NCBI RefSeq assembly: GCF_003334305.1
Contig: NZ_QOWS01000015.1
Reading direction: 5' to 3' (one strand)
Length of the DNA stretch: 64,000 nucleotides
Source: Escherichia coli
Lineage (GTDB): Bacteria > Pseudomonadota > Gammaproteobacteria > Enterobacterales > Enterobacteriaceae
Shown here one piece after another: positions 47,745 through 48,189 of the stretch. The first letter of the stretch is position 1. The number at the start of each line of letters is the position of its first letter. The position numbers were made by a program, and so were the translations under genes. The notes under the pieces are model-generated. The model ran no database searches. It had not been told where the DNA came from and was given only the letters and a program-made list of their open reading frames with translations.

Positions 47745-48102
47745 AGTCGCTGCCATTTATTCAGATAAAGAGTGCGTGGATGGTAGCAGAATTTCGCGTT
47801 GCTTACCGCCTGTTGTTAAGTGATTTGATCGATGGTTGTTAATGATGTCAACGATGGCGCAAAAAATGCCCGCTTTTGGTGCGCGCTGCGTCAGAATGGC
47901 GCAGTAATTTCCAGTAAATTTCGTCAATGATCACAATTCCAGAATTATATTTTACTTCTGCATAACATTGCGTTTTTTATTCTTTTTATTCACCCACATC
48001 GCAAACGTATTCACTTTATATGCACTTTAAATGCATATGGTTTGGTTATAACTCCTTGATTTCCAGTTAGCCTCCGCCGTTTATGCACTTTTATCACTGG
48101 CT

Positions 48103-48118
48103 GGCACGAACCCTGCAA
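48103..48118 (+). promoter_or_regulatory. Sigma-54 (-24/-12) promoter element of the ast operon
   Basis: TGGCACgaaccCTGCA with GG-N10-GC spacing, about 70 nt upstream of astC; the ast operon is known to be NtrC/sigma-54 dependent. Confidence 0.6.
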
Positions 48119-48189
48119 TCTACATTTACAGCGCAAACATTACTTATTGTTAACATATAAATAACGAATTATTTACTGTAGAGGTCGCT

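Follow-up and report, generated by a model that had tools for sequence, protein, structure and literature searches.

astC is a published example of a weak σ54 promoter with a distant NtrC enhancer and two architectural helpers, IHF and ArgR with arginine, an arrangement by which a single operon becomes responsive to nitrogen limitation, to arginine and to stationary phase. Although its sequence is consensus, the promoter has been reported to be weak and to rank among the weakest NtrC-dependent promoters tested (bioRxiv 10.1101/086108; PMC7045595). NtrC- and ArgR-dependent activation is described in papers that cite Kiupakis and Reitzer (2002; J Bacteriol 184:2940), and RpoS dependence of astC has been reported repeatedly, including in papers of this kind. 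ArgR is an accessory, non-essential activator of the σ54-dependent ast operon in both E. coli and Salmonella (PMC3037356; bioRxiv 10.1101/086108). For IHF, Table 1 of a further study (PMC2266799) attributes DNase I footprinting at astC to Kiupakis and Reitzer (2002). CRP has been named among the ast regulators (PMC3590144), and direct activation by Lrp has been reported for astC (bioRxiv 10.1101/276808).

The closest system at another locus is glnHp2 of E. coli, which like astC is a weak NtrC-dependent σ54 promoter with a distant enhancer and an IHF/DNA-bending site in between. What sets the ast region apart from glnHp2 is the additional use of arginine-bound ArgR, a ligand-responsive architectural co-activator. 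The candidate ast NtrC dyads, which our scan places about 250 bp upstream, lie farther out than those at glnAp2.

The DNA analyzed here, a stretch of 64 kb that we refer to as the window, comes from Escherichia coli. A 551-bp query (47700-48250) has a single match in each of 5425 of the 5426 complete E. coli genomes, and the annotations at these matches name the flanking genes xthA (exodeoxyribonuclease III) and astC (succinylornithine transaminase). The query is 100% identical to the bovine strain E2865; the strain analyzed here is not K-12. A sequence-only reading made before our analysis had called the two genes xthA and astC, and both identities agree with the genome matches and with the K-12 annotation. 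It had also described an AT-rich spacer of about 430 bp at 47757-48189. The base composition stands: G+C is 39% in the divergent intergenic spacer (0.391) and 0.332 between 47905 and 48100, as opposed to 0.53 in xthA, 0.55 in astC and 0.50 over the window. The left boundary has to be moved. Since the annotated start codon of xthA (268 amino acids according to RefSeq; minus strand) lies at 47744-47742 and that of astC at 48190, the spacer comprises positions 47745-48189, or 445 bp. The start at 47757 had followed the longest open reading frame on the xthA side (46938-47756) instead of the annotated xthA start, and the additional upstream ATG of this frame is not kept in other genera.

Compared with the astCADBE regulatory region of E. 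coli K-12, this is the same locus without any difference of substance. In K-12 MG1655, xthA and astC are likewise divergent and 445 bp apart from start codon to start codon, and the two spacers differ by a single substitution at 48149 in the astC leader (position +22; G here, A in K-12). Both the promoter 17-mer and its 62-bp distance to astC equal those of K-12 astCp. Several other genera carry A or T in column 48149. The ast region of Salmonella enterica resembles the window in its xthA–astC gene order, in its promoter (TGGCACGAA..CTGCAAT), in the length of its spacer (444 bp) and in the offsets of its NtrC, IHF and ARG-like elements; it is unlike the window in two central bases of the promoter spacer and at many non-consensus positions. 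The region serves the divergent xthA gene and astCADBE operon as a shared control region, and the astC control region within it is an already known and characterized, ordinary member of its class.

For a comparison beyond E. coli, we scanned one genome per species with the pattern TGGCACGAANNCTGCAAT and obtained 120 loci, 20 of which carry xthA and astC as divergent neighbors, with AstC proteins 77-97% identical to that encoded in the window. These 20 spacers stem from nine genera (Escherichia, Citrobacter, Salmonella, Enterobacter, Lelliottia, Pseudenterobacter, Cedecea, Franconibacter and Siccibacter) and measure 431-462 bp. Since recruitment of the loci relied on the promoter motif itself, the conservation of this motif is a circular result, and the set lacks lineages whose promoter has diverged; the remainder of the spacer is informative. 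There, conservation comes in patches, as in a phylogenetic footprint. The stretch from 48097 to 48139 is almost invariant well past the recruited motif, the least conserved stretch, which also contains indels, is 47793-47850, and the upstream elements described below hold their position within about 1 bp, with NtrC-like dyads present in most genera. This constancy of element positions across Enterobacteriaceae is the modest addition of our comparison to what is known about the system. Two further loci, one from Rahnella (L079) and one from an Enterobacterales metagenome-assembled genome (L119), have astC without an xthA neighbor and retain the promoter, the NtrC-like sequences and the ARG-like elements, most of the latter at unchanged offsets. 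Elements retained in the absence of xthA can be assigned to the ast side of the spacer.

The σ54 promoter of astC is the 17-mer CTGGCACGAACCCTGCA on the plus strand (48101-48117). Its GG (48103-48104) and GC (48115-48116) dinucleotides show the –24/–12 spacing of TGGCAC-N5-TTGCW, which amounts to one helical turn, and the sole departure from the consensus is a C in place of T before GCA. A loose search for TGGCAC-N5-TTGCW with one mismatch returned four matches in 64 kb with 3.3 expected, which is not significant, and two of these four are known promoters. The strict motif CTGGCAC-N5-YTGCA occurs once in the window with 0.01 expected; this match is intergenic, oriented toward astC and 62 nt away from its ATG. 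It is identical to site OS17 (astC) of a σ54 ChIP-seq study in K-12 (Bonocora 2015, PMC4591121), where its entry gives a distance of 62 bp to the gene, scores 11.29 by PSSM and carries the flag “C”, which stands for experimentally confirmed in EcoCyc (PMC4591121). In Salmonella, the counterpart TGGCACGAATGCTGCAAT was bound by σ54 in ChIP-chip experiments (Samuels 2013, PMC3844500). In addition, gSELEX recovered the astC/xthA spacer with either the RpoN holoenzyme or NtrC by itself and also with the two combined (PMC8743547). Given the identical 17-mer and the near-identical spacer, occupancy by σ54 can be presumed for the present strain from the K-12 ChIP-seq and gSELEX results.

The K-12 σ54 ChIP-seq study provides a rule for the transcriptional start site, which is placed 19 bp downstream from the center of the motif (PMC4591121). 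Applied to the center at 48109, it predicts a start at the A residue at 48128, followed by a 62-nt leader (48128-48189) that contains a GAGG Shine-Dalgarno sequence at 48181-48184; the distance from this start to the ATG equals the published one. No significant RNA fold was found in the leader (z = 0.11). These results bear on most of what the sequence-only reading had said about the promoter. It had recognized a σ54 promoter at astC, and the sequence is indeed that of a mapped K-12 site whose Salmonella orthologue is bound. The comparison with mapped ast promoters that it had recommended shows OS17 to agree letter for letter. Its view that the element lies at a suitable distance upstream of astC is supported by the predicted start 62 nt before the ATG, as published for K-12. 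The motif that it had placed at 48103-48118 is present but sits one base farther to the left, as TGGCACGAACCCTGCA at 48102-48117, with TGGCAC beginning at 48102. Finally, “textbook”, as the promoter had been called, is a fair description of its sequence and not of its strength.

Directly downstream, and overlapping the σ54 promoter, C-TACATT on the plus strand (48120-48126) reads as a candidate –10 element of the σS/σ70 type with a C at –13, and we infer its position from the letters. The corresponding sequence AATCTACATT is kept in 18 of the 20 spacers, and CTACATT is included in the almost invariant stretch mentioned above. A simple scan for σ70 promoters and terminators did not call this candidate –10, returned nothing relevant in the spacer and revealed no enrichment.

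Based on these observations and in line with the published view, we propose, with a probability of roughly 0.9, that the region is a control region in which NtrC, IHF and ArgR drive the astC σ54 promoter by DNA looping. According to this model, σ54 RNA polymerase would be held as a closed complex at CTGGCAC-N5-CTGCA (48101-48117). When nitrogen becomes limiting, phosphorylated NtrC would occupy two dyads located some 250 bp farther upstream (47867-47883, 47887-47903), oligomerize, contact the promoter by looping of the intervening DNA and open the complex at the expense of ATP, so that transcription would begin near 48128 and produce the 62-nt leader. IHF at 48049-48061 and arginine-bound ArgR at about 47959-47972, 48009-48047 and 48084-48097 would bend or wrap the AT-rich DNA and thereby help the distant enhancer to reach a promoter of low intrinsic strength. 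The σS-type –10 element that overlaps the σ54 promoter would probably provide for expression in stationary phase, with an rpoS-dependent start expected slightly beyond the σ54 start, at about 48132-48134. The near-exact distances between the sites would fit looping that depends on helical phase.

The putative enhancer consists of two NtrC-like dyads on the plus strand, TGCCCGCTTTTGGTGCG at 47867-47883 (center –253) and TGCGTCAGAATGGCGCA at 47887-47903 (center –233), which are 20 bp apart from center to center and each deviate at three positions from TGCACC-N5-GGTGCA. Counted singly, matches of this quality (3 of 12 positions mismatched) are not enriched, with 25 found and 34 expected in the window. 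In the 64 kb, however, no other two non-overlapping NtrC matches come closer to each other than about 50 bp. NtrC-like sites recur at –253/–254 and –233/–234 in most genera, and the columns of the GC-N11-GC core are conserved over the 20 spacers; in S. arizonae, only the –233 dyad falls within the mismatch cut-off. Clustering, position and conservation, as opposed to the counts of single matches, are what support the assignment of these dyads to NtrC, and the same applies to the ARG and IHF sites described below.

Binding of NtrC within the spacer has been reported. A ChIP-seq study lists astCADBE as a target and credits the demonstration of direct binding to Kiupakis and Reitzer (2002) (PMC4066584). 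At this promoter, an upstream enhancer is represented both by two conserved candidate dyads and by NtrC ChIP-seq and gSELEX peaks in the spacer. The ChIP-seq peak window, 1830021-1830101, corresponds to about 48095-48175 and covers the σ54 promoter and the leader, not the dyads (PMC4066584); this placement assumes the genome version of Bonocora's study, in which the astC ATG is at 1830006. The offset from the dyads may be due to the resolution of the method or to cross-linking through the loop.

Between the enhancer and the promoter, we found several sequences that may be bound by ArgR. Canonical ARG boxes are 18 bp long, contain the core TGAATWWWWATTCA and are separated by 3 bp. A candidate arrangement of this kind is a proximal pair on the plus strand (48009-48047) with cores at 48011-48024 (TCACTTTATATGCA) and 48032-48045 (TGCATATGGTTTGG), at about –117 and –96, which are 21 bp apart from start to start. 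Three mismatches occur in the first core, and in E. coli the second agrees with the consensus only over its left half; TATTCACTTTnTATGCA and the TG[AC]AT that follows it are kept in all genera, including the Rahnella locus L079 and L119. Farther upstream, a presumptive distal core, TGCATAACATTGCG, occupies 47959-47972 on the plus strand (start –169); its TG[AC]ATAA is conserved, and 12 of the 20 spacers show two to four mismatches to TGAATWWWWATTCA at this site. A weak candidate box, TGCACTTTTATCAC, adjoins the promoter at 48084-48097 (plus strand, start –44). Here, TTATGCA..TTT is conserved in all genera, and six spacers have four or fewer mismatches to the ARG core, with five in the E. coli copy. 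As with NtrC, single ARG matches are not enriched (20 found, 30 expected in the window). The sequence TATGCACTTT is repeated at 48008, 48019 and 48082, and TAT[TG]CA[CT]T elements precede the –24 T at fixed offsets of 94, 83 and 20 bp.

The candidate IHF site AATCAAGGAGTTA on the minus strand (48049-48061, center –73) is a perfect match to the consensus WATCAANNNNTTR. Such matches are not enriched singly, with four in the window and 2.7 expected. Conservation at the site is confined to the consensus positions, as in a footprint, and in 18 of the 20 spacers TAA-N4-TTGAT precedes the –24 T by exactly 53 bp. The precise coordinates of the ArgR and IHF sites, like those of the NtrC dyads, are predictions from motif, position and conservation, and regulation of ast by the two proteins is established in the literature. 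In naming NtrC, ArgR and σS as regulators, the sequence-only reading is in line with this literature, that is, with the reports on activation by NtrC and ArgR and on RpoS dependence. The scan for NtrC, ArgR and IHF motifs that it had suggested yields candidates for all three in the spacer. It had taken the size of the region as a sign of multiple upstream activator sites, and the dyads, the ARG-like boxes and the IHF consensus, all conserved in position, fit this expectation.

The most conserved stretch outside the promoter is a near-invariant block of 24 bp, GATCACAATTCCAGAATTATATTT, at 47929-47952 (–199 to –176; about 1,832,220-1,832,243 in K-12 NC_000913.3), with the NtrC dyads on its upstream side and the ARG/IHF region on its downstream side. 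Its GATCACA precedes the –24 T by 172-174 bp in all 20 spacers. In two Enterobacterales loci that lack the xthA neighbor, the interval is 183 and 192 bp, which corresponds to steps of about 10 bp. Because GATCACA is kept where astC has no xthA neighbor, the block belongs to the ast side. It contains a perfect CRP half-site (GATCACA), a two-mismatch Lrp match and a three-mismatch ARG-like core, all at levels of mismatch that do not exceed chance. We tried several readings of this element. A CRP consensus match at 47920-47935 has three mismatches, and since 221 such matches were found in the window with 220 expected, this reading is uninformative. The two-mismatch match to the Lrp consensus lies at 47940-47954, and matches of this kind occur about once per 500 bp. 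As an ARG box, AGAATTATATTTTA has three mismatches and would be 18 bp away from the next ARG-like core (–187 and –169), a non-canonical distance, and this reading was rejected. IHF, Nac, PuuR and promoter readings were dropped for want of a match by eye.

This block is the basis of the strongest alternative to our model, namely, that a factor bound to 47929-47952, such as CRP or Lrp, largely determines the geometry of the enhancer and would be the main co-activator in place of ArgR and IHF. Its exceptional conservation among the upstream elements, the 10-bp steps in its distance to the promoter (172-174, 183 or 192 bp), the half-site and the Lrp match within it, and the published roles of CRP (PMC3590144) and Lrp (bioRxiv 10.1101/276808) at ast would all agree with such a factor. 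However, CRP-like matches occur at the frequency expected by chance and Lrp-like matches are very frequent, the three-point phasing draws on only two outgroup loci, and the accessible literature ties no factor to the block and states that ArgR and IHF act here (PMC3037356; PMC2266799). We therefore consider this alternative unlikely and retain looping assisted by IHF and ArgR as the preferred explanation. A narrower proposal, that the block is a candidate site for a regulator newly placed at the astC promoter (CRP, Lrp or another) and in helical phase with the σ54 promoter, is slightly less doubtful but still improbable. No paper linking any factor to the block was found in the accessible literature, and published ArgR or CRP footprints may cover it.

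The opposite end of the spacer appears to serve the divergent gene. xthA is RpoS-dependent. A block at 47778-47791, which precedes the xthA ATG by about 35 bp, is kept in 19 of the 20 spacers and contains, on the minus strand at 47780-47788, the extended –10 sequence TGCTACCAT with a C at –13. We regard this as a plausible candidate for a σS/σ70-type xthA promoter, with a predicted start near 47773, which suggests that a part of the spacer also serves xthA.

The conserved block, together with the listing of xthA as a possible target of the same gSELEX peak (PMC8743547) and the presence of two small open reading frames on the minus strand (47757-47927, 56 amino acids; 48011-48136, 41 amino acids), could also be taken to mean that the length of the spacer is due to a small gene missing from the annotation, to a small RNA or to extensive regulation of xthA and not to ast sites. 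But both small frames are broken by frameshifts and stop codons in most genera, and an Rfam search of the spacer at a permissive setting gave no match that reached the threshold (best E-value 0.16). The conserved xthA-proximal part measures only about 50 bp, and 47793-47850 is the least conserved stretch. From 47929 onward, the distances of the conserved elements to the ast promoter are fixed, and these elements persist without an xthA neighbor. Such an origin of the spacer length is accordingly very improbable compared with an array of ast sites. The best Rfam match, to an mgtC leader, was rejected as sub-threshold (21 bits, with 48 required; E = 0.16).

That TGGCAC-N5-CTGCA is a chance match without promoter function, with astC transcribed from σ70/σS promoters only, would agree with the near-random count of one-mismatch sites and with the reported weakness of the promoter (bioRxiv 10.1101/086108; PMC7045595), but has next to no probability in view of the expectation of only 0.01 for the strict motif, the in vivo σ54 binding and EcoCyc confirmation of the identical K-12 sequence (PMC4591121), the bound Salmonella orthologue (PMC3844500) and the conservation past the recruited motif, across GCTGGCTGGCACGAA and CTGCAATCTACA.

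The window contains further σ54-like motifs outside the xthA–astC spacer. Two of the one-mismatch matches are located inside open reading frames, at 17426-17441 on the minus strand and 22728-22743 on the plus strand (TGGCACGGTTTTTTCA and TGGCACTTGGAGTGCT). Neither was found in the text of the K-12 σ54 ChIP-seq paper (PMC4591121), and both are probably due to chance. Another motif on the minus strand, ATGGCATGAGAGTTGCT at 22377-22393, is identical to the ChIP-seq site of yeaG (OS18), and its predicted start, 93 nt in front of an open reading frame of 644 amino acids (20339-22273), matches the published distance (PMC4591121). The centers of the yeaG and astC motifs (22385 and 48109) are 25,724 bp apart here and 34,733 bp apart in K-12 (PMC4591121). 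From this shorter distance, it follows that the strain lacks about 9 kb that are present in K-12 between the two promoters. The absent segment is presumably the ydjE-ydjL cluster.
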